NCBI GenBank assembly: GCA_011330835.1
Contig: DRPO01000178.1
Location: forward strand, 1 to 25,583
Length of the DNA: 25,583 nt
Direction: 5' to 3'
Source: Gammaproteobacteria bacterium
GTDB lineage: Bacteria > Pseudomonadota > Gammaproteobacteria > UWMA-0217
The position numbers and the translations under genes were made by a program. Below the pieces are notes generated by a model. It made no database searches. It was given only the letters and a program-made list of their open reading frames with translations, and had not been told where the DNA came from. Shown piece by piece: positions 1 to 23,107 of the stretch. How positions within the stretch are numbered: position 1 is the first letter of the stretch; each line of letters starts with the position of its first letter.

Positions 1-903
1 CCAAACGCGGGTGCCGTCGGGAAACTCGCGCAGGCTGGCCGACGCGCTCTTGTAGGTTTCATCGCCGACCAGCGGATCGGCGTGCGCCGAGCTGGCCCAC
101 GCCTGGCCGAGCTTGTCATGGCAGGCGAGACAGATGATGTCGCTGGCCTGGTTGAAGTTTCCGCCGACCGGCGCGGCCTGCTGGAAGCGGTTCAGGCGCA
201 GAAACTTGATGTTCTTGGAGATGTCGGTATCACGAATATGCGGATCGTGGCAGCTCATGCATTCGAGCTTGCCCAGTTCCAGCGGCACGACCGGCTTGAC
301 CCCGGGTGAGCGATTGCCGATGTGCGCGGCCACGGCGGGATCGCGCAACTCGCCATCGGCCAGCGCCAGGGCGCTGTCATAGGTGAAGGAGATCGGGTGA
401 TCGTTGGTCAGGTCCACGCCCAGGCGACGGGTGAAACCGCTGCTCGCGCCCCGCCCCGGTGGCATGCTGCCATCGGCGCTGGTGCCGCTCATCGCGAAGG
501 ACTGCCCGATCTGGCCATTCGCGACCTCCACGGTGCCGATCGCCAGCGTGCCGTCGTGACATGACAGGCAGAGCTTGGAGCTGCCGCCGGGTTCGGCGGC
601 GATATCGTTCGCGTCGATGGATTCGGACAGGTAGGGCGTATAGGTGCTGGTCGGCAGTTGACGATTCCACAACGGTGCGTTCGGCACGCTGGTGTTGGCG
701 CCATGCGGGGTATGGCAGAAGATGCACACGCGGCTCTCGGAAACCGCCTTTACCGTGCCCGGCCCGCTCGCCGACAGGTTGTGCTTGGTATTCCGCACGT
801 CGGCGATACGCTCCGCCGGCGCCACGCCGGACAGGCAGCTTCCCAGCAGCAGTATCGGCAACCATCGCCGTGATCGATCGAGCCAAGCCGTGTTCGCCAT
901 CAT
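1..903 (-). CDS. Large multiheme cytochrome c, N-terminal 301 aa only (runs off the left edge); begins with an OmcE-like tetraheme domain
   Basis: Not in the ORF track (no stop in window). Manual translation from ATG 903 (ATGA overlap with the upstream stop at 900-902): MMANTAWLDRSRRWLPILLLGSCLSGVAPAERIADVRNTKHNLS...CIFCHTPH...PLWNR...CLSCHDG...LGVDLTNDHP...CMSCHDPH...FLR...CLACH, open to base 1. Signal peptide plus 4 CXXCH in the window. Confidence 0.92.
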   Translation of the reverse strand, partial: MMANTAWLDRSRRWLPILLLGSCLSGVAPAERIADVRNTKHNLSASGPGTVKAVSESRVCIFCHTPHGANTSVPNAPLWNRQLPTSTYTPYLSESIDANDIAAEPGGSSKLCLSCHDGTLAIGTVEVANGQIGQSFAMSGTSADGSMPPGRGASSGFTRRLGVDLTNDHPISFTYDSALALADGELRDPAVAAHIGNRSPGVKPVVPLELGKLECMSCHDPHIRDTDISKNIKFLRLNRFQQAAPVGGNFNQASDIICLACHDKLGQAWASSAHADPLVGDETYKSASASLREFPDGTRVW

Positions 904-2009
904 CGCTCTCCCCCCAGAAACTGGAGCATCTGCACCCTGCCGTTGTACATATCGGCGATATACACCCGGTCACGCTGGTCGACGCATAGACCCGCCGGCA
1001 GATAGAACTGCCCCGGCGCGTTGCCGGTACCGCCGATGGGCAACAGCAATTGCCCCCGGTCGTTGAACACCAGCAGGTGATCGTAATAGGATTCAGCGAT
1101 ATACAGGTTGCCCTCGGCATCCACCGCGACGCCTTTCGGGCGTGTCAGGTTACCCACGTACAGACCCCGACTGCCCACCTGGCGCAGGTAGTTCCCCTCG
1201 CCGTCGTACACCTGGATGCGCGCGTTCAAGGTGTCGGTGACATACAGTTCCGTGCCGCTCCAGGCCAGATAGGTCGGCGCGTTCAGGGAGCCGGGCTTGT
1301 CGCCGGCATGCCCGATGGTATCGAGCAGCAGACCCTCGTCGTCCAGCACCTTCACCGCGTCGGCCGAGGTATCGGCGACGAACAGCCTGCCCCGTTTCGC
1401 GTCCCGCGCGACCCCGGTCGGGCGCTCGAACAGACCCCGACCGAGCGGCGCCAGCGGTCGGCCATCGGTATCCAGTCGCGCGACCACGCCGAGCTCCGCG
1501 TCGGCCACCAGCAGGATGCCGTCGGCGCCCATCGCGATGCCGATCGGCGAGACGAAGGTCTTGCCGGGGGTGGCCCGCCGCCATACCCTGAGACGCGCGG
1601 CGGGGATGTCGAAAACCAGCACCGCGTGGCGACTGACATCGGAGACATAGATCCGCCCGTCCTTGTCCACCGCGACCCCCTGCGGACGTTGCAACACGTT
1701 CGGCGGGCGGAATTCCTCGCCCAGGCCGATCAGCCAGGCGAAGGCTCTGCCGAGTCCCGTTGGCTCTTCCGTGCGTCGCGCCGGAAAGTTGGCTTCGCCG
1801 GTCAACTGTCCGATATAGGCGTAGCGTGGCTCGGCCGGGGCGGCCGGCCACATCGCCCAGACGTGCTCACTCTGACCGGCGAAGGGATCGTAGCGCTGCT
1901 GGCGTTCGACCGTCGCGCAGCCGGACAGCCACGCCAGCAAAATGCATGACGCCAGGCGCATCGCCATGCCGGAGCAAGCCGGATGCCCGGTGGTCATCGC
2001 CCTGGCCAT
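900..2009 (-). CDS. NHL-repeat beta-propeller lipoprotein (NHL-1)
   Basis: Repeated P-x-G-[VI]-A-V-D / G-x-[LI]-Y-V-x-D blades; lipobox LSGC; WPxxPxxxRxxY motif after the lipid Cys. ORF-track start 2183 overlaps the upstream cytochrome, so the start is placed at ATG 2009 (1997, 1967 or 1961 also possible). Confidence 0.9.
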   Translation of the reverse strand: MARAMTTGHPACSGMAMRLASCILLAWLSGCATVERQQRYDPFAGQSEHVWAMWPAAPAEPRYAYIGQLTGEANFPARRTEEPTGLGRAFAWLIGLGEEFRPPNVLQRPQGVAVDKDGRIYVSDVSRHAVLVFDIPAARLRVWRRATPGKTFVSPIGIAMGADGILLVADAELGVVARLDTDGRPLAPLGRGLFERPTGVARDAKRGRLFVADTSADAVKVLDDEGLLLDTIGHAGDKPGSLNAPTYLAWSGTELYVTDTLNARIQVYDGEGNYLRQVGSRGLYVGNLTRPKGVAVDAEGNLYIAESYYDHLLVFNDRGQLLLPIGGTGNAPGQFYLPAGLCVDQRDRVYIADMYNGRVQMLQFLGGER

Positions 2010-2016
2010 CGAGCAT

Positions 2017-2439
2017 TCACCAGCGACCCGGACCGCCGGTCTGGTGACCGCCAACGATGCCCGGCGCGAGACCCGCCTTGCCGGAATGGCAGATGTCGCA
2101 GTTCTCCGCCGACCAGGCGATCTCGCCGTTGTGGCACATACCGCAGAAACGGCCTTCGATAATATCCGCCATGGTGACCTCATTCGCTCCCGCGCGCATC
2201 TTGAACCCCAGTTCGTTATGGCACACCTTGCAACGAAAACGCATGCGGTGAAACCAGTGAGGAAAGATCACCGGTGGCATGCCTTCCGCCTCCGCGTGCC
2301 GATTCAGTATGACATCGGCATACTCCGCCCGGGCCGGCAAGGCGCCACTCACCAGGCCAAGACCCGACAGGCAGCTCAACATTCCGCCAACGACGACGCG
2401 TCGCTGCCTTTCCCACCCCGGTCTAGCGGCCACTTCCAC
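2017..2439 (-). CDS. Periplasmic c7-type triheme cytochrome (subtype I)
   Basis: FPHWFH followed by CKVCH, CGMCH, CDICH; signal peptide ending PARA-EY. Start uncertain (GTG 2439 or ATG 2382). Confidence 0.88.
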   Translation of the reverse strand: MEVAARPGWERQRRVVVGGMLSCLSGLGLVSGALPARAEYADVILNRHAEAEGMPPVIFPHWFHRMRFRCKVCHNELGFKMRAGANEVTMADIIEGRFCGMCHNGEIAWSAENCDICHSGKAGLAPGIVGGHQTGGPGRW

Positions 2440-2977
2440 CCGTCGCCATCGCCGCCGCCTCCTCCGGCGGAACACTGTGACAGCGGTTGCACACCAGCAA
2501 CGGAAAGGCAACCGCGCCGTGACAACGGCCACAGAACTCCCCCGACAGGATCTCCAGCATGCTCATGCGGGTCGCGCCGGCCTTGGTCTTGAATATCTCC
2601 TCGTGACAGTTGGAACAGTCCAGCCATTCGGTATGCGGCTTGTGTGGAAACAACACGTAGTTCGCGCTGCCGGTGTTCTTCATCAGGATATCCAGGTCCA
2701 GCACCTCGATCTTGGTCTCTGGAAAGATGTTGGTGCGCGGGTCGATGTAGCCGCCTTCCAGCGCCCTCACCCAACGTACCTTGTTGCCGACATCCCCGGC
2801 CTCGTCGCGCGGCAGTTGAGAAAGCGCCTCGGACGGTTCCTGCATCACCGCCAGCGCGGGATTCTCGGGGTCGTGCACGCCATCGTTCGCCAGTGGAAGC
2901 CAGTCGGCGAACGCCGGAATTCCGAGCAACGGCGCCAGCGCCAAGCAGTAGAACAGAAGCCTTTTTCGATCGTGCAT
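2423..2977 (-). CDS. Periplasmic c7-type triheme cytochrome with N-terminal extension (subtype II)
   Basis: Signal peptide ending PAFA-DW; FPHKPHTEWLD-CSNCH, CGRCH, CNRCH; AGGGGAAG RBS upstream. Confidence 0.92.
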   Translation of the reverse strand: MHDRKRLLFYCLALAPLLGIPAFADWLPLANDGVHDPENPALAVMQEPSEALSQLPRDEAGDVGNKVRWVRALEGGYIDPRTNIFPETKIEVLDLDILMKNTGSANYVLFPHKPHTEWLDCSNCHEEIFKTKAGATRMSMLEILSGEFCGRCHGAVAFPLLVCNRCHSVPPEEAAAMATGGSGR

Positions 2978-2986
2978 GATCTTCCC

Positions 2987-3889
2987 CTAACCTGGAATAT
3001 AGACGCCGGCGCCGCGAATCGCGCGGACGAGTTCCTTGGTCGAATCCTCCAAGGTCCTGACCGCCTTGCCGAATTGACCTCGCTGCGCCTGTGCTTCCGC
3101 CTTGCGACGCAGGCTTTGCGCCTTGCGCAGGCGCTCACCGACCAGCTTTCGGACGCGTTCGGAATGTTTCATCTTGTCCCGCGCCAGCACCTTCAGCAAC
3201 ATCTGGTGGGTGTCATTGCGATCGATCTCGTATTGATACTCCTCTTCCTTGCTGGCGAAATTCAGGCTGCGCACCAGGGTATCGCCGTCGCGCAGATGCT
3301 CGATGGTGACCTTGGCTGTGACGTAGGCCTTGTCCAGTATCTTGCGACCCGCCGGCAACTTGCCCTCGCGCTTCAATACCCAGGCATCGGAAACCTTCTT
3401 GCGGATATCGATGATCACCGGCGCGATCCGACGTTCCAGCTTCTTTTCCTTGGCGATGCGTTTCAACGCGGTCAACAAGGCATCGACGCTCGCGGCTCGC
3501 GCCTTGAAATCCCGGACATGCTTCTGCTTGACCGACTTGCCCGCGCCGACGAGCCGGATCGCGCCGAACATCGCGCCGGTGGCCTGGTTGAGCAATTGAT
3601 TGGCGGCATGCACATCACCGCTCGCGTATGCTTTTCTCGCCTTGTCGAGCAGTTTCGCCGCCTTTTTCTGCTCGGCGATGGCCTTCGCGTTACCGCTGCG
3701 CGCGACACGTTTCGCTCCCGAAGAGGTATGGATCAGACGGGACAGGTTCTCTATCCGCCCATCCACCGTTTGCTTGGTTACCTTGATCACCGGCGCCTTG
3801 CGCGCGGTCTCCGCCAGGGTCGCCGTGGAGAACATGACGAGGAAGACCGCCATCATCAGCGGCAGGGAGGCGTTGTTTGGTATTCTCAT
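2987..3889 (-). CDS. Exported, basic, alpha-helical protein of unknown function (paralog of 3905..4756)
   Basis: GGAGAG RBS before ATG 3889; signal peptide ending TATLA-E; Lys/Arg/Ala-rich helical pattern; no CXXCH; motif LNFASKEEEYQYEIDR. Confidence 0.8.
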   Translation of the reverse strand: MRIPNNASLPLMMAVFLVMFSTATLAETARKAPVIKVTKQTVDGRIENLSRLIHTSSGAKRVARSGNAKAIAEQKKAAKLLDKARKAYASGDVHAANQLLNQATGAMFGAIRLVGAGKSVKQKHVRDFKARAASVDALLTALKRIAKEKKLERRIAPVIIDIRKKVSDAWVLKREGKLPAGRKILDKAYVTAKVTIEHLRDGDTLVRSLNFASKEEEYQYEIDRNDTHQMLLKVLARDKMKHSERVRKLVGERLRKAQSLRRKAEAQAQRGQFGKAVRTLEDSTKELVRAIRGAGVYIPG

Positions 3890-3904
3890 CGATCTCTCCA
3901 ATGG

Positions 3905-4756
3905 CTACTTGGGCATGTACATGCCGAGAATCCCCAGTGCGTCGCCAAGACGCGCGATGGCGGACTCCAGGTGCTTTACCGCGATATCGTGGTGGCCGTC
4001 CCCGGCCTGGCTCTTCGCGTCGTTCCACAACGACTCGGCCTCGGCCACATGCCGGCGCATCGCGGCCTCCCGGGCGGGATTCAGTGAAACCTCCTTCTGC
4101 TTCATGCGCAGCAGCAGGGTCAGGGTGCGGTAACGGTTGAGTTCGTACTCGTATTCTTCTTTCGGACTGTTGAATACCAGCTTGTATTCCAGCGTTTCGT
4201 GGTTACGCAGGCTGGTCACCGCGACGGACATGGTGTTGTACATCGCGTCCACCAGGATGGTCGCGTTCTGGTAGTCCTGTTTCGCCGCGCGTTGGGTGGC
4301 TTCATTGAGCATGCGCTGGTAACTCGGCTCGTCGCATACCGTGCCGGGGTCGATGCCCTTTTCCCGACTGATCGAGAGAAAGGCGCCACGCAGCGAATCG
4401 ACCTCGGTCAGGCGCTTCCGGTAACGCTTCTCCAACAGCTTCAGCGATGGCTTGTGCCGCCGCGCGCCGTAACTCGTGGTCAGCATCCGCAGGATCTCGT
4501 TGGACAGGCGTAGCGACTCTCCATAGTCGCCGGCCGTCTTGGCGGCTTTCGCCGCCGCCAGGCTTTCGTCGATACCGGGGTTCTCGCCGCGCGCGCGCAT
4601 CGGGGCGTAGAGCCGCTCGATGAGTTGCAGCTTCTTCTCCAGTTGCGGCCAGTTGTGCGTTGGCGTTTCGTCGGCGCGCGAGGACAACCCGGACATCAGC
4701 ATGCCCGCCATCAGGGAGGCACCGATCAAGCCATGTCTTCCGTCGTGCGGGTTCAT
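3905..4756 (-). CDS. Exported alpha-helical protein of unknown function (paralog of 2987..3889)
   Basis: ATG 4756 overlaps the upstream stop (ATGA); signal peptide ending SSRA-DE; motif LVFNSPKEEYEYELNR; no CXXCH. ORF-track extension to 5086 overlaps the upstream gene and is rejected. Confidence 0.8.
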   Translation of the reverse strand: MNPHDGRHGLIGASLMAGMLMSGLSSRADETPTHNWPQLEKKLQLIERLYAPMRARGENPGIDESLAAAKAAKTAGDYGESLRLSNEILRMLTTSYGARRHKPSLKLLEKRYRKRLTEVDSLRGAFLSISREKGIDPGTVCDEPSYQRMLNEATQRAAKQDYQNATILVDAMYNTMSVAVTSLRNHETLEYKLVFNSPKEEYEYELNRYRTLTLLLRMKQKEVSLNPAREAAMRRHVAEAESLWNDAKSQAGDGHHDIAVKHLESAIARLGDALGILGMYMPK

Positions 4757-5718
4757 TTGCGTGCCTTTCTGGGTTTGCGTTTTGAATGGCACTTGCGACA
4801 CTCGGCGACCGGGAAGGCGACCTTGCCGTGACATACCCCGCACTTTTCGCCGAGCAGTATGGCCGCCATGCTGATGCTGTTGGCGCCTTTCTTCGGGATA
4901 AATATGGCCGGATGGCAGTTCGAGCAGTCCAGCCATTCGGTATGCTGCTTGTGCGGATAGACCACGTCGGGCATGGAACCCTTCACCTCGCGCACGATAT
5001 TCAGGTTCATCACCACCGGCTTCTTGTCCGGATCGAGTCGGTCGTAACGCGGATCGATGGCGCCCTTCTCCAGCGCCTTCACCCAATCCACGCGGTTTCC
5101 CGAATTCGCTCTCGGCAGCACGCCGAAGGCCTCCTTCGGATGCTGAAGCACGTGGGTACCATCGTTCGATGGATCATGGATGCCATCGCGCGTGGGCGGC
5201 GGGTTGCGCTTGGACGCCGGGCGCAGCAGACGGTTGAAGCGGTTGGCCGAGCGGCGGTGCTTTCGGGTCTTTCTCGCGGGGGCTTTCCTTGCCGGCTTCC
5301 TGACGACTTCCGCGACCCGCTTATTGGGCTTCGCGCTTGCCTTGGCCACCGCCGGCCTGGCCGGCGCCGCCCCGCCAGGCGTCACCAGCCCGATCATGTA
5401 GCGGGCCGCATCCACCACCTGCTGGTCGCTCAGCGCGGGATTTCCGCCTTTCGGCGGCATCGCATTGAAACCGTGCAGGGCGTGGTCGAGGAGGGTTTTC
5501 TCCCCCTTTGCGAGGCGTGGCCGCCAGTCGACGGAATTGCCCAGTCTGGGCGCTTGCAGAACCCCCTGCTTGTGGCAGGCGGCACACATGGTTTCGACCA
5601 CTTTTTGACCGTCGCCCGCCACGGCGATCCCGGCCATGGATGACCAGCCAACCACGAGCAGTATCGTGGAAAGCACGTATGACGACTTACGCGGCGCTGT
5701 CTTCGATGCATGATTCAT
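4753..5718 (-). CDS. Tetraheme fusion: cytochrome c5-type monoheme domain + basic linker + c7-type triheme domain (subtype II)
   Basis: AGGAG RBS before ATG 5718; signal peptide; c5 signature CAACH...APRLG...W..R...G...L..HALHGFNAMPPKGG; then YPHKQHTEWLD-CSNCH, CGVCH, CRKCH. Confidence 0.92.
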   Translation of the reverse strand: MNHASKTAPRKSSYVLSTILLVVGWSSMAGIAVAGDGQKVVETMCAACHKQGVLQAPRLGNSVDWRPRLAKGEKTLLDHALHGFNAMPPKGGNPALSDQQVVDAARYMIGLVTPGGAAPARPAVAKASAKPNKRVAEVVRKPARKAPARKTRKHRRSANRFNRLLRPASKRNPPPTRDGIHDPSNDGTHVLQHPKEAFGVLPRANSGNRVDWVKALEKGAIDPRYDRLDPDKKPVVMNLNIVREVKGSMPDVVYPHKQHTEWLDCSNCHPAIFIPKKGANSISMAAILLGEKCGVCHGKVAFPVAECRKCHSKRKPRKARK

Positions 5719-5740
5719 GACGCGACTCCTGTTGCGATGC

Positions 5741-6154
5741 TCATTTCTTCGGGGGAGCGATGAGTTTCTGCAAGGTGCTTTCATGCACCTGGGTCTTGGT
5801 GCCCGGCTTGCCCGAATGACACAGATCGCAGTTCTCCACCGACCAGGCGATATCGCCGTTATGGCAGGCGCCGCAGAACTCGCCGTCGATGATCTTCAGC
5901 ATCGTGATGTCGTTGCCACCGGCCTTGAAGCGGAAGCCCAGGTCCGCGTGGCAGACCTTGCAACGAAAGCGGATCCGGTGGAACCAGTGTGGAAACACCG
6001 CCGGGCGCATGCCGGCGTCGTCGGAGTAGTTGTTGATGACGATATCGCCATACTCCGCCCTGGCGGTATCGATGGCGGTCAGCATGCCCATGCCGACCGC
6101 CAATGACACGGCGACCAACAGGGAACGCGTGTTACCGGCACAAAGTTTCATCAT
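5741..6154 (-). CDS. Periplasmic c7-type triheme cytochrome (subtype I)
   Basis: AAAGGAG RBS; signal peptide ending TARA-EY; FPHWFH-CKVCH, CGACH, CDLCH. Confidence 0.93.
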   Translation of the reverse strand: MMKLCAGNTRSLLVAVSLAVGMGMLTAIDTARAEYGDIVINNYSDDAGMRPAVFPHWFHRIRFRCKVCHADLGFRFKAGGNDITMLKIIDGEFCGACHNGDIAWSVENCDLCHSGKPGTKTQVHESTLQKLIAPPKK

Positions 6155-6231
6155 GGTCTGTCACTCCTTTATTCTCTGACTATTCTCTATGTTGCTGAGC
6201 GGGTCGGGCGGTAAACCGGGCACGCCGGCAC

Positions 6232-7962
6232 TCAGAAGTGCCGGGTAAAATCGAGCAATATGCGCACATCGTTCGAGCCTCTGGAGGTGCGCAGGTAGTT
6301 GACCTCGAAACGACTTTCCAGCTTGCCGATAAAGTGTCGAAACTGGTTCTTCCACAGCCAGCGGCCGGTCCCGGAGTTGCCGCTGTTGCCGATTTCGCTG
6401 ATGAACCTGTCCCATCGAAATTCAAGCGAACCGTGATAGCTGAGGTTCGCCACGCCAAACACCCGGGATTGGAAGTAGTCCATGTCGAACAGCGCGCTGT
6501 TGGTGTGTGACGACGACTCCTCGGAATCCACGCGTGCGTCGCTGGCCGAAAACGAGCTGCTGAAGGTGCCGTTGTCACCGAATGGCCGACTGTAGGCGCC
6601 GGTAAGAGTCGCGACCTGTACCGTGTTGTCGAAGCGTCCGCTGTCCCGCGTCCAGGTATAGATGCCGCTCAGGGAGGCCACGCGCGAACCGCTGCTGTGA
6701 TTCAACGTCGAGGAGATGGACTGCGAAAGAATCGTGCTGTCTTCCCCGTCGGAGCGCAGCTCGCCACCGACCGACTGCCCCGCGCCGAACACCAGCACGG
6801 TGGATCGCCCTTCGCCGAGGATCACCAGCTTGTTGACGTTGTGCTGAATATTGCCGCCGACGGACTGGATGTCCTCGCCCTCGGAGAATATCTCGTTACG
6901 CGCGAATACCCCGGTGCTCCAGTTGTAGTCCAGCCCCCATCGCAGGCGGATGACTTCCGGCGTGTATCTGAGGTCGATGCGCTGAAAGCTGCTGGTGATG
7001 CCACCGGCGTCGACATCGACATTGGCGCTGACATCGCCGCTCAGGACCAGTCTTTCCGTCAGGTCGTAGTCGGCGCCGGCTTGCAGGCGCAGACGGCGAT
7101 CATCGGTACCGCCCCCGCCGCTGTCGGATTGCCGCCATTGCAGGTTGACGCCGGCGCGTACCCGCAGCGGGCGCTCCGGGTCCCGCCAGGAGAGACGGGA
7201 ATCGGCCACCAGCTCGGTCGTCGTGAAATTGGCGAAGGCATTGCTCGCGTTGAATTCGAGATAATTCAAGCTCGCCGAACTGGTGATGTTCATCGCGTCG
7301 CTGGGGTTCCAGTTGTGATCGACCCGGGCGAGCAGTTCGTTGTTGTCCAGGCCGCCGGTTTCCAGCTTGTCCATGCGCCATTGAAACAGGGCGCTGATGT
7401 CCTGTTTAGGCTTACGCCAGCGTCCGGTGGCGGTGAACAGGTCGGTGGTATTGGTCTCGTCCCGGCTACCCACCTCCTGAACGTAGCGCTCCAGGCGCGC
7501 GTCGTAGCTTCCACCACCGGGCTCCGGCGAGCTGTAGCGCTGAAGCACGCCAAAACGGTAGGTTCTGCTGTCGATGTCGGAGAGCACCGAATCCGCCAGA
7601 TCGACGCTGGAATCGGTCACCTGGAAATAGGCCTCGAAGGGAAAGCGGCTCTTGTGGAAAAGCATGACGCGACCATTCCCCGTTACCGCGGTCGACGAGC
7701 TGTCATTGACCGAGCCACTCGAATCGGACTGCGACCACGAGAGATCCAGGTTCCACACGCCAAACCACGGGCGCCACAGATAACTGTCCGCGTGTACCGA
7801 GGTCTGATAGAAGAGATTGTCGGATTCATCATTGTCGGAACGCACCCCGAGATAGCCCAGCCGGACCTGCCCGGACCAGTTTATCGGCGGAATCTCGGCC
7901 TTTACGGTCTGTGCCAGCACGAGTAACGACATCGCCAGCGCAATCGAATACCGGGGATTCAT
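6232..7962 (-). CDS. Outer-membrane beta-barrel protein (putative porin of a porin-cytochrome or cytochrome-export system)
   Basis: 576 aa; signal peptide ending TVKA-E; alternating hydrophobic/polar strands rich in W/Y/F, Ser/Gly/Asp-rich loops; C-terminal barrel signature ending in Phe (ILLDFTRHF); no CXXCH; embedded among cytochrome genes. Confidence 0.8.
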   Translation of the reverse strand: MNPRYSIALAMSLLVLAQTVKAEIPPINWSGQVRLGYLGVRSDNDESDNLFYQTSVHADSYLWRPWFGVWNLDLSWSQSDSSGSVNDSSSTAVTGNGRVMLFHKSRFPFEAYFQVTDSSVDLADSVLSDIDSRTYRFGVLQRYSSPEPGGGSYDARLERYVQEVGSRDETNTTDLFTATGRWRKPKQDISALFQWRMDKLETGGLDNNELLARVDHNWNPSDAMNITSSASLNYLEFNASNAFANFTTTELVADSRLSWRDPERPLRVRAGVNLQWRQSDSGGGGTDDRRLRLQAGADYDLTERLVLSGDVSANVDVDAGGITSSFQRIDLRYTPEVIRLRWGLDYNWSTGVFARNEIFSEGEDIQSVGGNIQHNVNKLVILGEGRSTVLVFGAGQSVGGELRSDGEDSTILSQSISSTLNHSSGSRVASLSGIYTWTRDSGRFDNTVQVATLTGAYSRPFGDNGTFSSSFSASDARVDSEESSSHTNSALFDMDYFQSRVFGVANLSYHGSLEFRWDRFISEIGNSGNSGTGRWLWKNQFRHFIGKLESRFEVNYLRTSRGSNDVRILLDFTRHF

Positions 7963-7982
7963 GAAGTTCTGTACTTATGCCG

Positions 7983-9047
7983 TTACCCTCCCGCCGTCCC
8001 GGCGATCATCGACCAGCCTTTCGAGCGTAGCGTTTCCTTCACGCCGGGCACGGCGAGGTAATCGCCATCCACGACCTCGACCTTGGCGCGCGCGCGCAGC
8101 CTTTCCAGCTCCTCTTCCAACGCCAGCTCGCGATGCTCGCGCAACCATAGCTGGATAGCGCGCTTGCGTACTCGGGAAAGCGGATTCAAATGGGCGGCCT
8201 GGCGCTCCTCCAGCTTCAGCAGCGAGAAGCCTTCCAGCAGTTGCACCGGTTCGCTGACCTGCCCGGGGCGCAACTCGTCGAGCACCTTCTTCGCGGTTTC
8301 GCCCAGCATGCCCCGGTGCAGATAGCCGAGATCGCCACCCTGCTCGGCTGAGGGATCGCCGGAATAGCGTCTTGCCAGTTCACCGAAGTCTTCGCCGGCG
8401 CGTATCCGTTTCAGTATCCCATCCGCCTGCTCCTTGGCCTTCACCCAGGCCTGCGTACCGGCATAGGGTTCCACCTTCAGCAGGATCACGCGCGCGTGCA
8501 CCTTGCCGGGATTGCTGAATTTCTCGGGATAGCGGCGATAGTAGGCCGTCAACTGCTTCTCATCCGGCGGGGGAATATCCTTGATGTGCGCGATGAGTTG
8601 CTGCAACAGGCTCTCTCTTTCGAGCGAACGGCGTAACGCCGCCTCGACCTGTTTCTCCTGGTTCGCGTTCCAGCGCGGATCTTTCCGCAGCCTGTCCATC
8701 TGTCGCGTGAGCCGTTTCGAGACCCATTGCCCATCGGGTTTCATACCCAGGTGGCGGGCCTGCTGTTCCAGCAGCACCGCGTCGATCAGGTTCAGGCCGA
8801 CCTCTTTCTTGTACGACAGCAGCTCGCTCTCCGGCGGCTTGCCGTGATAGAAACGGGTACGCAATCCTCGTTGAAAGGTCCGGATATAGCGCTGCAACGT
8901 CACGCGCTCGCCGTTGACGACCGAGAATACCGCCGCCTTGTCCGGTTTCTCCGCGGCGCTGGCATTGGCCGATACGCCAAGAGACCAGCCAGCCAGTACC
9001 GAGAAGACCAGTGTCAGGATGATGATCGTGTCGTTTCTTGACCTCAT
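7983..9047 (-). CDS. Exported parvulin (PpiC-type) peptidyl-prolyl isomerase, SurA/PrsA-like chaperone
   Basis: AGGAGAG RBS before ATG 9047; N-terminal signal; SurA-N-like helical region; rotamase motif VHARVIL...GEDFGELARRYSGDPSAEQGGDLG...L.PGQVSEPV. Confidence 0.92.
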   Translation of the reverse strand: MRSRNDTIIILTLVFSVLAGWSLGVSANASAAEKPDKAAVFSVVNGERVTLQRYIRTFQRGLRTRFYHGKPPESELLSYKKEVGLNLIDAVLLEQQARHLGMKPDGQWVSKRLTRQMDRLRKDPRWNANQEKQVEAALRRSLERESLLQQLIAHIKDIPPPDEKQLTAYYRRYPEKFSNPGKVHARVILLKVEPYAGTQAWVKAKEQADGILKRIRAGEDFGELARRYSGDPSAEQGGDLGYLHRGMLGETAKKVLDELRPGQVSEPVQLLEGFSLLKLEERQAAHLNPLSRVRKRAIQLWLREHRELALEEELERLRARAKVEVVDGDYLAVPGVKETLRSKGWSMIAGTAGG

Positions 9048-9126
9048 CAAAAGCTCTCCTGCCCGGATTCAGAGGTATCCGGACGGTCCGCAACGGTGGC
9101 ACGCTGCCGACATATTATTGTTCTCC

Positions 9127-9170
9127 GACGTTCAGCCGGCGGGAGGAGACACATCCCGCGACTGAACGTC
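9127..9170. terminator. Intergenic stem-loop (attenuator or mRNA-stabilising hairpin) after the first gene of the leftward operon
   Basis: GACGTTCAG (9127-9135) / CTGAACGTC (9162-9170) perfect arms with inner GCGGGA/TCCCGC; no clear U-tract. Confidence 0.4.
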
Positions 9171-9214
9171 CCACCACGGTTGCTTCCCGGAGATCGGGAA
9201 AGCACCGGCGTCCG

Positions 9215-10042
9215 CTACTTGATATGGCAAGCCAGACAGACGTCGCTGTTGTCGTTGTCGATGCGTAGGAACTGCACCGGTTGCGAGGCGGTATTGTGCG
9301 GATCGTGACAGCTCGCGCACTCCACGGCGGGGCCGGCGGTAACGATGTTGCCGTCACCGGCATCACGCGTATACAGGATCATGTCGGTTTTCTGCCGATT
9401 CGCGGAACCCCCGATCGAGGTATTCACCCACCATTGTGGATTGCCGTTGATGCTGGCAAAGTCGGCGGGCTGGAAATCCGGGTCGCCCGTCGACGCGGTC
9501 TGTGGCGTGCAAGGGCCTGGCGTGGCACTCGCGCAGGCGCCGCCAGCGTACTCGATACTGATCGGATGATCGTTGCGCAGATCGGTACCGAGCATGGGTA
9601 CCGGGCTGCCCGTCATCTCGTTACCCGGCGTACCCGTCCCGAAAGAACCAAGCCCCGACCCTGGCGCATTGATGACCGCATCCATCGCCTGGGTGCCGTC
9701 ATGACAGGAGAGGCAGGCGATGGAAACCGAACCCACCGTGGCTTCCTTACCATCCAGCGTCGCGGTACCAAGATCCGAGTAGCGTTGATAACCGGCGCCA
9801 CCCAGGCCAGTCAGATTCTTGTTCCACAGGGGAGCGGCCGCCGATGTGTCCGATCCGTGAGGCGTATGACAGAAGACACACACCTCCGTGGTTCCACCCA
9901 GTGGGCTGTTACCGCTGATCTGGCTGCTGCCGCTGGCGCCAAGATTGTGCTTGCTGTTTGCGTCCCCAATCCCGGCCACGGCGGGGATGGCCGCGACCGC
10001 TCCCGCCACCACGGCCCAGGACATGCTGGTTAGTCTACTCAT
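9215..10042 (-). CDS. OmcE-like tetraheme cytochrome c (paralog A)
   Basis: GGGAGG RBS; signal peptide; SKHNL, CVFCHTPH, PLWN, CLSCHDG, LGTDLRNDHP, CASCHDPH, FLR, CLACH: 4 CXXCH plus 4 spare His. Confidence 0.9.
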   Translation of the reverse strand: MSRLTSMSWAVVAGAVAAIPAVAGIGDANSKHNLGASGSSQISGNSPLGGTTEVCVFCHTPHGSDTSAAAPLWNKNLTGLGGAGYQRYSDLGTATLDGKEATVGSVSIACLSCHDGTQAMDAVINAPGSGLGSFGTGTPGNEMTGSPVPMLGTDLRNDHPISIEYAGGACASATPGPCTPQTASTGDPDFQPADFASINGNPQWWVNTSIGGSANRQKTDMILYTRDAGDGNIVTAGPAVECASCHDPHNTASQPVQFLRIDNDNSDVCLACHIK

Positions 10043-10121
10043 TTAATTTCCTCCCGCCTTGCTATTTATTTAAGGCTTGTTGATCGTAGGCGACAGACAC
10101 ACGCCTGTCCCCAGCTACCCA

Positions 10122-10137
10122 AGCAATCCGCGTGCCA
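10122..10137 (-). promoter_or_regulatory. sigma54 -24/-12 promoter for the main leftward operon
   Basis: TGGCACGCGGATTGCT on the minus strand, exact TGGCAC-N5-TTGCW consensus, about 80 nt upstream of ATG 10042. Confidence 0.85.
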
Positions 10138-10239
10138 AACACGCCGATGCCCAAGCAATGGCGCTTCCCGCGCATTCCGACGCCTGATTTCTCATAAACG
10201 GGAAGGCTGTTTTTCCCGCTTTCGAGACTCGCCGCCTTT

Positions 10240-11067
10240 TCACTTGGCATGGCAACTGCTACAGATGTGGCTGCCGGCATTGTTCATGCGCAGAAAGCTC
10301 ACCGGCGTCGAGTCGGCGTTATGTGGGTCGTGGCAACTGGCGCATTCGACCGAGGGGCTGCGGTTTCCGCCCGCGCCGTTGCCGCTGCCCCGCGTATACA
10401 GAATCATGTCGCTCTTCTCGCGCAGCGCGGTGCCGCCCCGGGTATCGACCCACCACTGGGGCACACCGTTGATATTCGCGTAACTCGCCGGGTTGAAATC
10501 CGCGCCGGCCGGGCCGGGCGCGGTTGGGTCACAACCCCCCACGACTCCGTTGCAGGCGCCGCGCGCGTATTCGACATTGACCGGATGTCCGCGTAACCAG
10601 TCCGACGCTGCAAACCCCGAGCCTGGCACCCAGAAGCCAGGTCCGCTGCCCCCGGCATTGATGATCGCGTCCACCGCCTGCGTGCCGTCGTGACATGACA
10701 GGCAGGAGATGGAAACCGAGCCGACGACGCGTGACTTGCCGCCCAGCATCGCCGTGCCGAGGTCGGCGTAACGCTGATAGCCGTCGCCCGCGCTGGATGG
10801 CACCCACAGCGGGTCGGTCTCGCGATCCGCCACCCCACTGGGGGTATGGCAGAACACGCAAAGATCGGTTTCCACCACATCGGCGCCCGCGTCCGCGCTT
10901 CCGGAACGGGCCGAAAGATCGTGTTTGCTGCCGACAAAGCCGGCGCGCGCCTGTCCGGGCCGGAATGCAACGACCAGCAACAGCATCGAAAAGGCAAGGA
11001 CGACAATGCCAGCCGGCAACACGATGAACCTCGCCGAATACCCATATGCATACTTACACGTCACCAT
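10240..11067 (-). CDS. OmcE-like tetraheme cytochrome c (paralog B, one distal His replaced)
   Basis: SKHDL, CVFCHTPS, CLSCHDG, LRGHP, CASCHDPH, FLR, CSSCH; long segments closely similar to paralog A (YQRY.DLGTA.L.GK...GSVSI.CLSCHDGTQA.DA.IN; INGxPQWWV; K.DMILYTR). Confidence 0.9.
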   Translation of the reverse strand: MVTCKYAYGYSARFIVLPAGIVVLAFSMLLLVVAFRPGQARAGFVGSKHDLSARSGSADAGADVVETDLCVFCHTPSGVADRETDPLWVPSSAGDGYQRYADLGTAMLGGKSRVVGSVSISCLSCHDGTQAVDAIINAGGSGPGFWVPGSGFAASDWLRGHPVNVEYARGACNGVVGGCDPTAPGPAGADFNPASYANINGVPQWWVDTRGGTALREKSDMILYTRGSGNGAGGNRSPSVECASCHDPHNADSTPVSFLRMNNAGSHICSSCHAK

Positions 11068-11208
11068 GCTTATCTATTCCATCCTCGTGTACCGCGTGCC
11101 CGGGGAGCGATCATTCGCGGCAGACCGTGCCAAGGCGGTCGAGCGGGAATCGGACCCGACAATCGCCCGGAGATAGGCGCGCGATACGCCAGGCTTCAGC
11201 AATATGCC

Positions 11209-11224
11209 AGCAACCCTCGTGCCA
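11209..11224 (-). promoter_or_regulatory. sigma54 -24/-12 promoter for tetraheme paralog B
   Basis: TGGCACGAGGGTTGCT on the minus strand, exact consensus. Confidence 0.85.
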
Positions 11225-11269
11225 AGATTCGAAATTCGACGACTTCCGTTACGCCGCATGCGATTCGGC

Positions 11270-11285
11270 TGGCGTGAAAATTGCT
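11270..11285 (+). promoter_or_regulatory. sigma54 -24/-12 promoter for NHL-2
   Basis: TGGCGTGAAAATTGCT (GG-N10-GC); unusually close to ATG 11300. Confidence 0.65.
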
Positions 11286-11299
11286 TGCACATTGGAGCA

Positions 11300-12376
11300 A
11301 TGACTATTCACCGTACATCGGGAACGCCTCCCGGGCGCCTCATCGCCGTCCTGTGCCTCGTTGTGCTGCTGTCGGCCTGCGCGGGTCCGGCGCGAAAACA
11401 AGCGAACGACTGGAGTGGACTGCGCTGGCCGCCGCCTCCCGAACAGGCCCGTTTTCGTTATGTCACCACACTGCGTAACCACAAGGACATCGAGCGAGGC
11501 AAAGAGGAAACCAGACTGCGCGATACCATCACCGGGGTTGCCGGCGCGCCGGTCCCGACGCCGTTGAAGGAGCCCTACGCGATCGTCGCGAATGGAGGCC
11601 GCTTGTATGTATCGGACATCCGCATCAACCGTATCCATGTCTTCGACATCCCACGTGGACGCTACTTCACGATGGGCTATCGATTCGAGGGGAAACTGGC
11701 AAAACCACTCGGCATGGCCTTGCGTGAGGAGGCACTCTACGTCGCCGATGTAAAACAACGTCGGGTCGTGGTCTACGACCCGCTGGGGCTTTACCAGCGC
11801 AGCATCGGTGACGAGAAGGATCTGACACGGCCGACCGATGTCGCGCTCAGCCCGGATGGCCAGCGTATCTATGTCGTGGATACCGGCGGGGTGGAAAGCC
11901 AGGACCATCGCATCGTGGTCTTCGACCACGAGGGGAAGAAACTTTTCACCATCGGCAAACGCGGGTCCGCGCCGGGGGAATTCAATCTGCCCGTCGCGCT
12001 GACCATCGTCGCCGACGGCACGTTGTATGTCCTCGATGCCGGCAACTTCCGCGTCCAGGCGCTGGATCCGGATGGCAAGCCGTTGCGCGCATGGGGAACG
12101 GTCGGCAACAACCCGGGACAGTTCGCGCGCCCCAAGGGCATCGCCCACGACCGCGACGGCAATATCTACGTGGTGGATGCCGCCTTCGGCAACGTGCAGG
12201 TCTTCGACCCGGAGGGCCGGCTGCTGCTGCCGATGGGGAAACGTGACGAGGCCGACGATCGCCCCGGGCGTTACGGTCTGCTCACGGCTGTCGACCTGGA
12301 CGAGAAGGGCTATCTGTATCTGCTCGACAGGATGTTCAAGAAGATCGATGTCATACAGAAGCTCGAATCCCGTTAA
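11300..12376 (+). CDS. NHL-repeat beta-propeller lipoprotein (NHL-2)
   Basis: GGAG before ATG 11300; lipobox LSAC; WPPPPEQARFRY; NHL blades (PTDVALSPDG.RIYVVD, GEFNLP, GQFARPKGIA.D). Confidence 0.92.
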   Translation: MTIHRTSGTPPGRLIAVLCLVVLLSACAGPARKQANDWSGLRWPPPPEQARFRYVTTLRNHKDIERGKEETRLRDTITGVAGAPVPTPLKEPYAIVANGGRLYVSDIRINRIHVFDIPRGRYFTMGYRFEGKLAKPLGMALREEALYVADVKQRRVVVYDPLGLYQRSIGDEKDLTRPTDVALSPDGQRIYVVDTGGVESQDHRIVVFDHEGKKLFTIGKRGSAPGEFNLPVALTIVADGTLYVLDAGNFRVQALDPDGKPLRAWGTVGNNPGQFARPKGIAHDRDGNIYVVDAAFGNVQVFDPEGRLLLPMGKRDEADDRPGRYGLLTAVDLDEKGYLYLLDRMFKKIDVIQKLESR

Positions 12377-12563
12377 CAACGCCCGCGTTTCGTGGTGAAA
12401 ATTCCCGGATTCAAGAGAAATCTTCCCGGGCGTGGGAATTTCATAACGCTGAACGCGGGCCGTCGACTTGAGATCGCCCCTAGCCCGCTCTGTGCCACAA
12501 AGCCCACGGGTTGCCCGTGCGTCACGCCGCCGCACACACCCTTCCCGCTCGACACAAGAATAA

Positions 12564-12579
12564 TGGCCCGAATTTTGCT
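12564..12579 (+). promoter_or_regulatory. sigma54 -24/-12 promoter for the pentaheme paralog C
   Basis: TGGCCCGAATTTTGCT (GG-N10-GC, TTGCT) about 95 nt upstream of ATG 12673. Confidence 0.8.
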
Positions 12580-12672
12580 TGCCTGATCAGGTAGGGCGAA
12601 ACTTGTTAATAATTCAAAACAGTTTTCCGTAGGACTCCTTGAATACAGTTCGAATAAAAGAAGGAAACCGCT

Positions 12673-13590
12673 ATGGCATCGAGAGCGAGATCAAAAATAC
12701 TTACGACCGTGGTTTGCCTGTCCGCCGGCAGCGCGGCCCTTGCGGGCGGCGACGTACCCACGGAATTCACCAACCAGGGCGGTATCAAGAACACGCGCCA
12801 CAACCTGACGCAGAACGTACCGGGCATCAACAGCAGCCTGATGGATCTGCAACGCAACAACTATGGCGAGATCTGCGTGTACTGCCATACGCCCCACGGG
12901 GCCAATACCACGCCCGGCATGCCACTGTGGAACCGCCAGACACCCACCGGTCCCTACACCACCTATGACCAATTGAATACCACCACCCTGACGCAGACGG
13001 TAACCAGCCCGGGCGCGAATTCCCTGACCTGTCTCTCATGCCACGATGGTTCACTCGCCATCGACGCCATCATGAACATGCCCGGGCCCGGTCGCTACAG
13101 CGCCAACCCGGACATCTCCTTCCTGAATCAATGGGCCAATCCCGGCGGATCGACCTCCAGCCACGCCCACATGGGAGACCCCACCGGGGCCAACCCGAGT
13201 ACCGGCTGCATGGTCTGCCACAACGATGGCGGCTCGGGCAACTCCTTCCCGGACGCCACCGATTTCAGCGTATTCCTGATCGGCACGGACCTGAGAAACG
13301 ACCATCCGGTCGGCGTCAGCTTCCCCTCCAGCGGCGCCGCCGCGGGTTTCAATACACCTACCCCGGTATCGAGCAGCCTGGCGGTGTTCGATACCAATGG
13401 CAACAACCGCGCCAATACCAACGAGATCCGCGTGTATGACACCGGCGAAGGCTTCGAGGTGGAATGCGCCAGTTGTCATGATCCGCATGGCGTGCCCTCG
13501 GCCGGCCCCGGCAGCACCCACTACCCGACCTTTTTGAGGGTGGACAACAGCAATGGCAGCGCGGTCTGCCTTACCTGCCATATCAAGTAG
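12673..13590 (+). CDS. OmcE-like cytochrome c with an extra heme (pentaheme, paralog C)
   Basis: AAGGA RBS; signal peptide; IKNTRHNL, CVYCHTPH, PLWNR, CLSCHDG, inserted HAHM...CMVCH, IGTDLRNDHP, CASCHDPH, FLR, CLTCH. Confidence 0.92.
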   Translation: MASRARSKILTTVVCLSAGSAALAGGDVPTEFTNQGGIKNTRHNLTQNVPGINSSLMDLQRNNYGEICVYCHTPHGANTTPGMPLWNRQTPTGPYTTYDQLNTTTLTQTVTSPGANSLTCLSCHDGSLAIDAIMNMPGPGRYSANPDISFLNQWANPGGSTSSHAHMGDPTGANPSTGCMVCHNDGGSGNSFPDATDFSVFLIGTDLRNDHPVGVSFPSSGAAAGFNTPTPVSSSLAVFDTNGNNRANTNEIRVYDTGEGFEVECASCHDPHGVPSAGPGSTHYPTFLRVDNSNGSAVCLTCHIK

Positions 13591-13721: not shown

Positions 13722-13801
13722 TCCTTCATTCCATGCGCGCGACGAATGAACATTGCGCGCTATCGCCCCGGTTGGCTGCGGCGGGAATAAAACCGGTCGA
13801 T

Positions 13802-13829
13802 GGAATATCCGCGAGCCCCTCGTGTTTAT
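13802..13829 (+). promoter_or_regulatory. Putative autoregulatory ECF promoter GGAATA-N14-GTGTTTAT
   Basis: Same motif and spacer occur upstream of the second ECF gene (21395..21422, minus strand). Confidence 0.75.
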
Positions 13830-13928
13830 TATCTATATGAAGATAAGACGAGACATTCCATCCGACGAAACACGACAGAGAAAACTACAAAAATATGTTT
13901 CCTGGAAAACTGGAAAAGAGCTCGAACC

Positions 13929-14441
13929 ATGGATGATTTCGCTGAAAGACTGGTGGAGGAAATTCCGCACCTGCGCCGCTATGCAAGATCGCTCACCTGC
14001 GACGCGGAGCGCGGCGACGACCTGGTGCAGGACTGCCTGCACCGCGCCTGGAGCCGAATGCATCTGTGGCAGCAGGATGGCAACACGCGGGCCTGGCTGT
14101 TCACCATCATGCACAACATATTCGTCAATGATATTCGCAAGGCACAACGCCTCGCTCCCACGGAGCCGCTGGAGCTGCGTCAGCATGCCACCGTCGGCCA
14201 GTCGGATGGCGATCGGGCCATGTTGATGCGCGATCTCGAACAGGCGCTTGCCCAACTGCGGGCCGATCACCGCGAGGTGCTGATCCTGGTCGGCGTGGAG
14301 CAGATGAGCTATCAGGAGGTTGCCGATCTGCTCGACATCCCGCTAGGCACCGTCATGTCGCGTCTGCATCGCGCGCGTTCCAAGATGAGGGACTGGATGA
14401 ATGGGGAACAACCCAGGGTCACGCTGAGGCCGGTAACGTGA
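13929..14441 (+). CDS. ECF RNA polymerase sigma factor 1 (PrtI-like)
   Basis: Sigma region 2 (IPHLRRYARSL...DDLVQD...AWLFTIMHN) and region 4 (REVLILV...MSYQEVADLLDIPLGTVMSRLHRAR); start placed at ATG 13929. Confidence 0.95.
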   Translation: MDDFAERLVEEIPHLRRYARSLTCDAERGDDLVQDCLHRAWSRMHLWQQDGNTRAWLFTIMHNIFVNDIRKAQRLAPTEPLELRQHATVGQSDGDRAMLMRDLEQALAQLRADHREVLILVGVEQMSYQEVADLLDIPLGTVMSRLHRARSKMRDWMNGEQPRVTLRPVT

Positions 14442-20858: not shown

Positions 20859-21361
20859 TTAACCCCCCTCAGGCTGGCCGATGCATCACCCCGCATCACC
20901 TCGCGCAACTTGATCCTGGCGCGGGACAGGCGGGACATCACCGTGCCCGCCGGTACATCGAGCACCTTGGCCGTTTCCTCGTAACTCAGACCTTCCAGCC
21001 CGATCAAAAGCACCACCAGCCGCTGACCGTCCGGGAATTCGTCGAGTCGTCGTTGCAAATCCCGCAGCACCAGGCGTGAGTATTGATTCGGCGCCTGCTC
21101 TCGTTCGCTGACGGTATCCAGGGACACGAGCGATGGCGCGCGGCTGTAGCGTCTCGCGGCATTCGCGTGAATATTATGCATGATGGTGAACAGCCATGGA
21201 CGGATGTCGTCGTCCCCGCGATACAGGTGTTTGCGCGACCAGGCACGTTCCAGGCAGTCCTGCACCAGTTCGTCCGCCTGCTCCTTGTCCTTCATCAGCG
21301 CACGCGCGTAACGCCTCAGGCGAGGGATGTTCTCGATCAACAGCGATTCAAAATCACCCAT
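20855..21361 (-). CDS. ECF RNA polymerase sigma factor 2 (PrtI-like)
   Basis: IPRLRRYARAL...DELVQDCLERAWSR...PWLFTIMHN; LSYEETAKVLDVPAGTVMSRLSRAR; start placed at ATG 21361. Confidence 0.95.
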   Translation of the reverse strand: MGDFESLLIENIPRLRRYARALMKDKEQADELVQDCLERAWSRKHLYRGDDDIRPWLFTIMHNIHANAARRYSRAPSLVSLDTVSEREQAPNQYSRLVLRDLQRRLDEFPDGQRLVVLLIGLEGLSYEETAKVLDVPAGTVMSRLSRARIKLREVMRGDASASLRGVK

Positions 21362-21394
21362 GGGGCAGTTTCCCGGATACACCAGTCCTGCTGT

Positions 21395-23103: not shown

Positions 23104-23107
23104 GCGT

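Follow-up and report, generated by a model that had tools for sequence, protein, structure and literature searches.

Gene content and identity of the locus

The window analysed here is the whole 25.6-kb contig DRPO01000178.1 (contig C178, 25,583 nucleotides) from a 3.05-Mb metagenome-assembled genome (MAG) of a gammaproteobacterium, which is 95% complete and shows 5.5% contamination. The genes were mapped by six-frame translation together with counting of haem motifs (CxxCH) and Pfam searches. By gene content and order the locus is assigned to the Uet/Occ type of extracellular electron-transfer cluster, and four of its genes, here named A (UetA), B, C and D (UetJ), encode cytochromes related to OmcE, the filament subunit of Geobacter sulfurreducens. 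A sequence-only reading of the same DNA had placed the cluster within positions 1-13590. The cluster in fact extends past this region on both sides, on the left over the edge of the window onto contig C164 and on the right to about position 20017. Its core is composed of the following genes.

1-903, minus strand: 5' part of uetJ (gene D) with four CxxCH, encoding a signal peptide and a complete tetrahaem module of OmcE-like type; runs off the left edge of the window
900-1967, minus strand: NHL propeller lipoprotein of UetH/I type (PF01436, E 4e-34; lipobox LSGC)
2017-2382, minus strand: c7 trihaem cytochrome of UetG type (PF14522, E 2.4e-15)
2423-2977, minus strand: c7 trihaem cytochrome with an N-terminal extension (PF14522, E 9.8e-11)
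2987-3889, minus strand: h1, exported helical protein at the position of Tenderia UetF; no Pfam family above cut-off
3905-4756, minus strand: h2, exported helical protein, paralogue-like partner of h1; no Pfam or NCBIfam match
4753-5718, minus strand: UetE-type fusion of a class-I monohaem cytochrome c and a c7 trihaem (PF13442, E 2.2e-13; PF14522, E 5e-13)
5741-6154, minus strand: c7 trihaem cytochrome of UetD type (PF14522, E 9.1e-15)
6232-7962, minus strand: UetC, 576 amino acids (aa), predicted 28-strand outer-membrane beta-barrel (AlphaFold2, DSSP)
7983-9050, minus strand: UetB, periplasmic peptidyl-prolyl isomerase (PPIase) with SurA_N and parvulin domains (PF00639, E 2.1e-19)
9215-10042, minus strand: UetA (paralogue A), 275 aa, canonical OmcE-family tetrahaem cytochrome with four CxxCH
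10240-11067, minus strand: open reading frame of paralogue B, probable start at 10986, 248 aa, four CxxCH
11300-12376, plus strand: NHL propeller lipoprotein paired with C (PF01436, E 4.1e-18; lipobox LSAC)
12673-13590, plus strand: paralogue C, OmcE-like, 305 aa, five CxxCH

The Uet cluster has been described as UetA (tetrahaem), UetB (PPIase), UetC (barrel), UetD/E (c7 trihaems), UetF (cupredoxin), UetG (c7), UetH/I (NHL), UetJ (undecahaem), CcsA, CcsB and NrfG (Eddie et al., bioRxiv 10.1101/2022.05.06.490989). The order found here is tetrahaem-PPIase-barrel-c7-c7-X-c7-NHL-undecahaem-CcsA-TPR, the same as that of Eddie et al., and the comparison with uetABCDEFGHIJ-ccsAB-nrfG of Ca. Tenderia electrophaga and other Tenderiales, made by gene content and order, showed agreement in both. 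The likeness to Uet pointed out in the sequence-only reading is therefore upheld in content and order, while its attribution of Uet to Gallionellaceae needs correction; the cluster was first defined in Tenderiales and occurs also in some Gallionella and Leptothrix (Eddie et al. 2017, 2022; 10.1101/2022.05.06.490989). The present locus differs from Tenderia in several respects. Two helical proteins stand in place of the cupredoxin UetF, and neither gene at its position (2987-3889 and 3905-4756) gave a cupredoxin match. The helical pair is followed by two c7 genes, where Tenderia has one. Only one NHL gene lies directly before uetJ against two in the Uet list, and two more NHL genes are located elsewhere in the window. 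An extra block holds paralogues B and C, a second NHL gene and a pair of extracytoplasmic function (ECF) sigma and anti-sigma factor genes, and neither ResB/CcsB nor BatABD could be recognised on contig C164, which adjoins.

For comparison with other genomes, a pattern scan for the UetA family was made with one genome per species and gave at least 598 candidate stretches; at least 572 species genomes encode a UetA relative. Synteny was analysed by tblastn with the window proteins in the best 80 of these at least 572 loci, and gene counts were taken from the subset of 57 loci having at least 9.5 kb downstream.

Homology of the small cytochromes with the OmcE filament subunit

The skeleton KH[ND]L / CxxCHTPH / PLWN / CLSCHDG / DLxNDHP / CxSCHDPH / FLR / CxxCH is found in A, C and D. 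The sequence-only reading had recognised four genes with this skeleton, B deviating at three motifs, and the translations and the family profile agree with it exactly. A profile made from 30 family members matched A, B, C and D with E values of 1.3e-117, 1.5e-91, 3.6e-53 and 4.3e-51, respectively, and detected no further copy in the 3.05-Mb genome.

When searched by phmmer against all PDB chains, each paralogue showed two significant targets only, 7TFS and 9YUQ. The former is the OmcE filament of G. sulfurreducens, and the latter is a 16-chain entry named 'putative multiheme cytochrome c', matching the Desulfuromonas soudanensis OmcE bundle of Petersen et al. (2026, PMC13712944). Single-sequence E values against 7TFS were 2e-20 for A, 8e-16 for B, 1e-18 for C and 9.4e-24 for D. 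With a profile of 122 family members they reached 1.4e-36 for 7TFS and 1.9e-35 for 9YUQ, a strong match which confirms the relation to OmcE that had been proposed from the skeleton. All four CxxCH motifs and all four extra histidines coincide with OmcE positions in the alignments; OmcE homologues possess four CxxCH along with four further conserved haem-ligating histidines (PMC13712944). A, C and D retain the histidines of KH[ND]L, TPH, NDHP and DPH, while B is without one of them (TPH changed to TPS). In UetA the extra histidines are His32, His62, His159 and His249, and the chain stops two residues past the last CxxCH. The 122 members are about 40-67% identical to A; all of them keep the haem motifs, His32, His159 and His249 unchanged, and conservation of His62 exceeds 90%. 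The C-terminal end is CH-x-K in A, B and C, compared with CHKK in OmcE and CHSK in the D. soudanensis protein, and this type of ending is present in nearly all complete stand-alone modules counted in the 80 loci. D does not end after haem 4 and continues into seven more haems. At the level of sequence, A, B, C and the first module of UetJ are hence established as homologues of the OmcE filament subunit.

Petersen et al. (2026, PMC13712944) report OmcE homologues in five phyla, mainly Thermodesulfobacteriota and Pseudomonadota, and chose those capable of forming nanowires by requiring that a large barrel and a propeller lipoprotein be encoded close by. In their description, a minimal omcE cluster consists of OmcE, one barrel and two each of multihaem cytochromes and propeller lipoproteins. 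By protein type, the same combination is found here as a 28-strand barrel and three NHL proteins with lipoboxes. The system thus shares with Geobacter and Desulfuromonas OmcE (7TFS, 9YUQ; Wang et al. 2022; Petersen et al. 2026) a homologous tetrahaem subunit with four CxxCH, four extra histidines and an equal C-terminal end, and with the OmcE clusters a large barrel, beta-propeller lipoproteins, further multihaem cytochromes nearby and a five-haem OmcE-like variant. The subunits are only about 30% identical, and UetA carries an insert that is considered below. Additional in the Uet cluster are the PPIase, the c7 trihaems, the helical proteins and an undecahaem cytochrome starting with an OmcE-like module, whereas the glycosylation gene block of the OmcE clusters is not present here. 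The host is a microaerophilic chemolithoautotroph in contrast to the anaerobic metal reducers which carry OmcE, and OmcE has been seen as a filament while no filament has been observed for Uet proteins.

Paralogue B departs from the skeleton by CHTPS for CHTPH, PLWV for PLWN and WLRGHP for DLRNDHP. The distal histidine of TPH is lost with the change to TPS, and an additional histidine is situated ahead of haem 4. Its closest relative outside its own genome, P0122 (locus L099:5683-6477), is 48% identical and also has TPS. B and P0122 are the members of a TPS-type subfamily of OmcE-like tetrahaems, in which one of the haems may either stay five-coordinate or receive a ligand from a partner. The contig of P0122 (L099) also has the five-haem C-type gene, an NHL gene, the trihaem cytochrome c, the third NHL gene, the c7 and the c4 gene of the accessory block described below. 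Because P0122 has this same context, the accessory block with B and C is regarded as a conserved module and not as a decaying duplicate. A divergent OmcE-like tetrahaem with CHTPQ for CHTPH and the C-terminal end CMACHDI was seen in an Ectothiorhodospiraceae MAG (L052:3388-4413).

The extra haem motif of paralogue C, CMVCH, belongs to an insert that follows haem 2 and precedes the NDHP histidine. Eight complete five-haem homologues of C were found in other loci, and the pairing of a C-type gene with an NHL gene recurs in L014, L020, L055 and L099, including Ideonella and Thiobacillus loci. Petersen et al. (2026, PMC13712944) have proposed that five-haem OmcE-like proteins constitute a new family of 'leaky' nanowires. 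Particular to the present locus is the occurrence of three stand-alone OmcE-like classes, the canonical A, the TPS-type B and the five-haem C, beside UetJ.

UetJ begins with an OmcE-like module

The tetrahaem module of D aligns colinearly with 7TFS over residues 25-223. Contig C164 extends D by 520 residues and seven CxxCH motifs to about 821 aa with 11 CxxCH, and D is identified as UetJ because this continuation brings the total to 11 haems. Full-length UetJ homologues of 796-866 aa with 11 haems are encoded in five other genomes, and they show an invariant histidine 12 residues after haem 4. In the only six sequences compared, 16 histidines are invariant besides the 11 in the motifs. Downstream of uetJ on C164, a CcsA-type protein (PF01578, E 7.8e-26) is followed by a TPR protein. 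Past these genes C164 (L084; 6147-13102) encodes two proteins with propeller repeats of the two-component-regulator type (Reg_prop), together with a sigma-54 activator and a PAS histidine kinase. Contigs C178 and C164 overlap by 325 nt with four mismatches within uetJ (positions 1-325 of each), and the assembly break in this gene probably arose from strain heterogeneity.

According to Petersen et al. (PMC13712944), omcE operons contain no gene for a candidate anchor or tip, and an anchor would be expected to look like OmcE while satisfying its own terminal haem. We infer from the sequence that UetJ would match this description in outline, as it has an OmcE-like module whose terminal haem is followed by more protein.

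Barrel, chaperone, propellers, c7 trihaems and helical proteins

The 576-aa product of uetC had been suspected to be a beta-barrel, and the AlphaFold2 model bears this out with a mean predicted local distance difference test (pLDDT) of 93.7 and 28 strands by DSSP. Twenty-eight strands are also predicted for Tenderia UetC (Eddie et al., 10.1101/2022.05.06.490989). UetC has no Pfam or NCBIfam match. A fold search against AlphaFold database clusters returned generic large barrels only, the top match having template modelling (TM) scores of 0.59/0.67, and a search of the PDB returned TonB-dependent receptors, ushers, LptD and MtrB at TM 0.25-0.39. The label 'TIGR03016 PEP-CTERM-associated OMP', borne by the Atlas clusters nearest to UetC, was taken as an automatic name and rejected; the NCBIfam scan including TIGRFAM gave no match. 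NCBIfam has no models for UetA, UetC, UetJ or the helical proteins.

The parvulin chaperone, the NHL propellers and the c7 trihaems named as neighbours in the sequence-only reading are real according to Pfam. In UetB the PF13624 (SurA_N_3) match has an E value of 4.4e-06 and scores 27.1 bits against a cut-off of 27.2. The UetD-type trihaem shows 69-89% identity in other loci. The stop of the NHL gene at 900-1967 overlaps the start of uetJ (ATGA), and D is translationally coupled to it. A helical pair in place of UetF is common to most other loci. Matches of h1 type were found at the same position in 54 of the 57 loci, and tblastn matches to h2 in 61 of the 80. The Atlas clusters nearest to h1 and h2 are automatically named YfdX-like or DUF4398, which is regarded as a lead only.

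Accessory block and regulatory genes

To the right of paralogue C the cluster continues with an accessory block of cytochromes and lipoproteins, and with regulatory genes.

13800-14441, plus strand: ECF sigma factor (PF08281, PF04542)
14438-15223, plus strand: putative anti-sigma factor, adjoining the ECF sigma factor
15421-16437, minus strand: trihaem class-I c-type cytochrome (PF13442, E 1.1e-28), with an orthologue in L099
16543-17634, plus strand: third NHL propeller lipoprotein (PF01436, E 4.8e-21), adjoining UetA in most other loci
17635-18426, plus strand: c7 trihaem lipoprotein with a proline-rich linker (PF14522, E 4.3e-08)
18525-19220, plus strand: duplicated lipoprotein (lipobox VAAC), no family match
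19256-20017, plus strand: dihaem c4-type cytochrome (PF13442, E 1.8e-24)
20855-21382, minus strand: second ECF sigma factor

The block of c4, third NHL and c7 lipoprotein genes is usually situated directly upstream of uetA in other loci and is therefore considered a part of the system; the c4 gene is conserved in 54 of the 80 loci. In the present locus the ECF sigma and anti-sigma pair is inserted between the uet core and this usual upstream block. The lipoprotein at 18525-19220 is composed of two similar halves, each with ...YTY[VL]E[VI]DTG...W...HDFHS..L.RDF, and is found in only 5 of the 80 loci.

The remainder of the window encodes the second ECF sigma factor, a histidine kinase, a sigma-54 activator and a response regulator, and both ECF sigma factors have a region 2 of PhyR-sigma2 type. 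The sigma-54 activator and kinase lie at 21757-24508, and another such pair is present on C164. Exact sigma-54 promoter sites (TGGCAC-N5-TTGCT) are located at 10122-10137 (minus strand), 11209-11224 (minus strand) and 24768-24783 (plus strand). The first is 80 nt upstream of uetA, the second precedes paralogue B and the third precedes the response regulator gene at 24821. Sites with one mismatch occur at 12564, 13706, 16421 and 23673, all on the plus strand, and two of them precede paralogue C and the ECF sigma gene. With up to two mismatches 24 sites were counted, compared with 12.4 expected.

Host and distribution

A search of the genome revealed two RuBisCO large subunits, DsrA and two CcoN (cbb3 oxidases). 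Only one sequencing run, a hydrothermal-vent metagenome, contained most of the locus, and no RNA run containing it was found in the sequencing-run search. Taken together the gene set and the source point to a microaerophilic, sulfur-oxidising autotroph from a vent, with a lifestyle as in Tenderiales, whose host type is alike in being an autotroph with two cbb3 oxidases. Among the matches listed, the nearest relatives of UetA are from Gammaproteobacteria, the best being 67% identical, and no close relative of the source organism was present. The host is accordingly other than Geobacter, as had been supposed from the sequence.

The 80 best loci represent Chromatiales, Granulosicoccaceae, Thiodiazotropha symbionts, Woeseiaceae, Thioalkalispiraceae, Magnetococcales, many Burkholderiales and Rhodocyclaceae, and Nitrospirae and Nitrospinota MAGs. 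In nearly all of these 80, tblastn with the window proteins revealed an equal gene order. Among the 57 loci with sufficient downstream sequence, the PPIase was found in 56 (adjoining UetA), the barrel in 49, c7 in 56, NHL in 53 and the start of UetJ in 44, and the Uet gene order is repeated in 48. The barrel is only about 25% identical between loci, and some copies were probably missed by tblastn. The family is also carried by cultured bacteria, namely Ramlibacter alkalitolerans KACC 19305, Noviherbaspirillum sp. ST 5-3, Ideonella sp. A 288, Halomonas sp. DQ26W, Aestuariirhabdus sp. LZHN29 and Inmirania thermothiophila.

Relation to Occ and to porin-cytochrome systems

The occA-S cluster of Ca. 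Dechloromonas occultata encodes 10 cytochromes, NHL proteins, a PPIase and the extracellular undecahaem OccP (Szeinbaum et al. 2020, bioRxiv 10.1101/695007). The Occ proteins were detected while Mn(III) was being reduced, the acceptor being soluble Mn(III)-pyrophosphate, and the cluster is reported to be widespread in Beta- and Gammaproteobacteria (10.1101/695007). Compared by description, Occ appears to be the same kind of kit as Uet, described independently. Both are cytochrome-rich clusters with NHL-repeat proteins, a PPIase and an undecahaem, and Rhodocyclaceae MAGs are among the syntenic loci found here. They differ in that Occ is proposed to work outward, in Mn(III) reduction, and belongs to a mixotroph without RuBisCO; OccP has 922 aa while UetJ has about 821 aa here.

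With MtrCAB and PioAB the locus shares the general logic of an outer-membrane barrel and multihaem cytochromes spanning the envelope. The barrel has 28 strands here and 26 in Mtr/Pio, and UetC and MtrB superpose with TM 0.39 at 9% identity. No decahaem of MtrA/PioA type was found in the cluster, NCBIfam decahaem models scoring far under cut-off.

The cluster type itself is already published (Uet in 2017/2022, Occ in 2020), as are OmcE homologues of Pseudomonadota with a barrel and a propeller (mBio 2026). Petersen et al. 2026 (PMC13712944) make no mention of Uet or Tenderia, and the Uet and Occ papers make no mention of OmcE (10.1101/2022.05.06.490989; 10.1101/695007). An explicit equation of Uet with an OmcE-type kit was not found in the literature searched and seems to be unpublished. 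The present locus is an unusually complete copy of a known, widespread cluster type with an unusually full set of paralogues.

Proposed mechanism and alternative explanations

The locus is interpreted as a Uet/Occ-type extracellular electron-transfer cluster whose small cytochromes belong to the OmcE nanowire family and may work by a filament mechanism, a reading to which a probability of about 0.5 is given. The OmcE homologues are encoded together with UetC, UetB, NHL lipoproteins, c7 trihaems and a CcsA-type haem lyase. In the proposed mechanism, UetA would be exported and stacked head to tail in the manner of OmcE, the invariant N-terminal His32 completing the haem that lies at the free C terminus of the adjoining subunit. 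UetJ, having the same module with seven more haems and no free end, would attach to the chain at one of its ends and connect it to the periplasmic c7 trihaems, either through the UetC barrel or at it, and the PPIase, NHL lipoproteins and helical proteins would assist in folding or assembly. Electrons would most likely flow inward from conductive minerals; uptake is the likelier direction because the host is a CO2-fixing, sulfur-oxidising vent bacterium with cbb3 oxidases. The kit may be able to work in the outward direction too, which has been proposed for Occ in the reduction of Mn(III). Filament formation by UetA is plausible, with roughly even odds. The sequence-only reading went further and saw a complete apparatus for cytochrome filaments; the components are present as it said, while the filament is inferred and the AlphaFold2 monomer is poor.

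Several observations weigh against filament formation, and part of them favour a porin-cytochrome conduit in which UetJ, in or on UetC, is the trans-membrane wire while UetA and its paralogues serve as monomeric or small-oligomer partners, extracellular or at the periplasmic face. The Uet authors themselves favoured such a conduit and treated polymers only as a possibility (10.1101/2022.05.06.490989), and this published model, adopted for Gallionella and Leptothrix, fits a 28-strand barrel with an elongated 11-haem protein. Nothing in the present analysis spoke for self-association or polymerisation of UetA. The haem-free AlphaFold2 monomer of A, built with a 122-row alignment, has a pLDDT of 58.8 and falls below 50 at all haem motifs. 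Prediction of a complex of two mature A chains with four haems, which is the complement of one subunit, scored 0.25 against a mark of 0.42, a result that counts neither for nor against a filament. UetA further contains about 60 residues, inserted after the NDHP histidine and ahead of haem 3, which OmcE and the UetJ module both lack and which set UetA apart from proven filament formers. The insert (residues about 160-240) is the only confidently modelled part of UetA, with beta strands at pLDDT 78-89, a conserved cysteine pair and a WWVD motif, and it could block or alter the packing of subunits. The role of His32 as inter-subunit donor is an assumption, the likeness of UetC and the NHL proteins to the barrel and propellers of the Geobacter omcE cluster is by type only, and the joining of D across two contigs rests on the 325-nt overlap with its four mismatches, possibly between different strains. 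Against a conduit without filament stands the fact that every protein of the OmcE family whose structure has so far been examined is a filament, in G. sulfurreducens, D. soudanensis and G. metallireducens (2D data). UetA keeps unusual features that head-to-tail stacking would explain, namely an end two residues past haem 4, an invariant N-terminal histidine and eight histidines for four haems. The cluster also encodes no periplasmic decahaem of MtrA/PioA type, and its barrel resembles MtrB at a TM of only 0.39. The conduit is a serious possibility, held to be less than an even bet.

A redox task in the periplasm or at the cell surface that has no connection with mineral or long-range electron exchange, for example on sulfur species or chelated Mn(III)/Fe in solution, with the OmcE-like proteins acting as ordinary soluble tetrahaem carriers, is considered improbable. 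The host is a sulfur oxidiser (DsrA), Occ was expressed with soluble Mn(III)-pyrophosphate as acceptor, and the family is found in many aerobic heterotroph-like genera without known mineral respiration (Ramlibacter, Halomonas, Noviherbaspirillum), all of which would suit this explanation. A purely periplasmic task would however hardly account for lipoprotein propellers, a secreted 11-haem protein and a dedicated barrel of 28 strands, and Uet transcription follows the electrode potential in Ca. Tenderia, the Uet genes being expressed on cathodes (10.1101/2022.05.06.490989).

The filament interpretation has also a more elaborate form, in which the Uet/Occ kit is a multi-component OmcE-type nanowire with UetA as the major subunit, UetJ as the terminating anchor and B and C as minor subunits. 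The UetJ module could donate its N-terminal histidine to the last UetA, its own haem 4 being followed by seven haems and the invariant histidine, and UetJ would thread into the 28-strand barrel. The TPS-type B and the five-haem C would be minor cap, tip or 'leaky' subunits. This form is speculative and thought rather unlikely as a whole.

Significance for the Uet/Occ family

The cluster supplies candidates for anchor and tip subunits, which are not found in the omcE operons of Geobacter. If UetA-type proteins polymerise, cytochrome nanowires would extend beyond the anaerobic metal reducers and be in common use among sulfur and iron oxidisers, vent bacteria and animal symbionts, a UetA relative being encoded in at least 572 species genomes, and the Uet/Occ conduit would gain a concrete structural model. 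The multi-component arrangement, if true, would answer the questions of initiation, termination and tip protein raised for OmcE wires (PMC13712944), and electron-uptake nanowires would be common in aerobic and microaerophilic sulfur and iron oxidisers and symbionts. The cultured carriers make the filament hypothesis testable.

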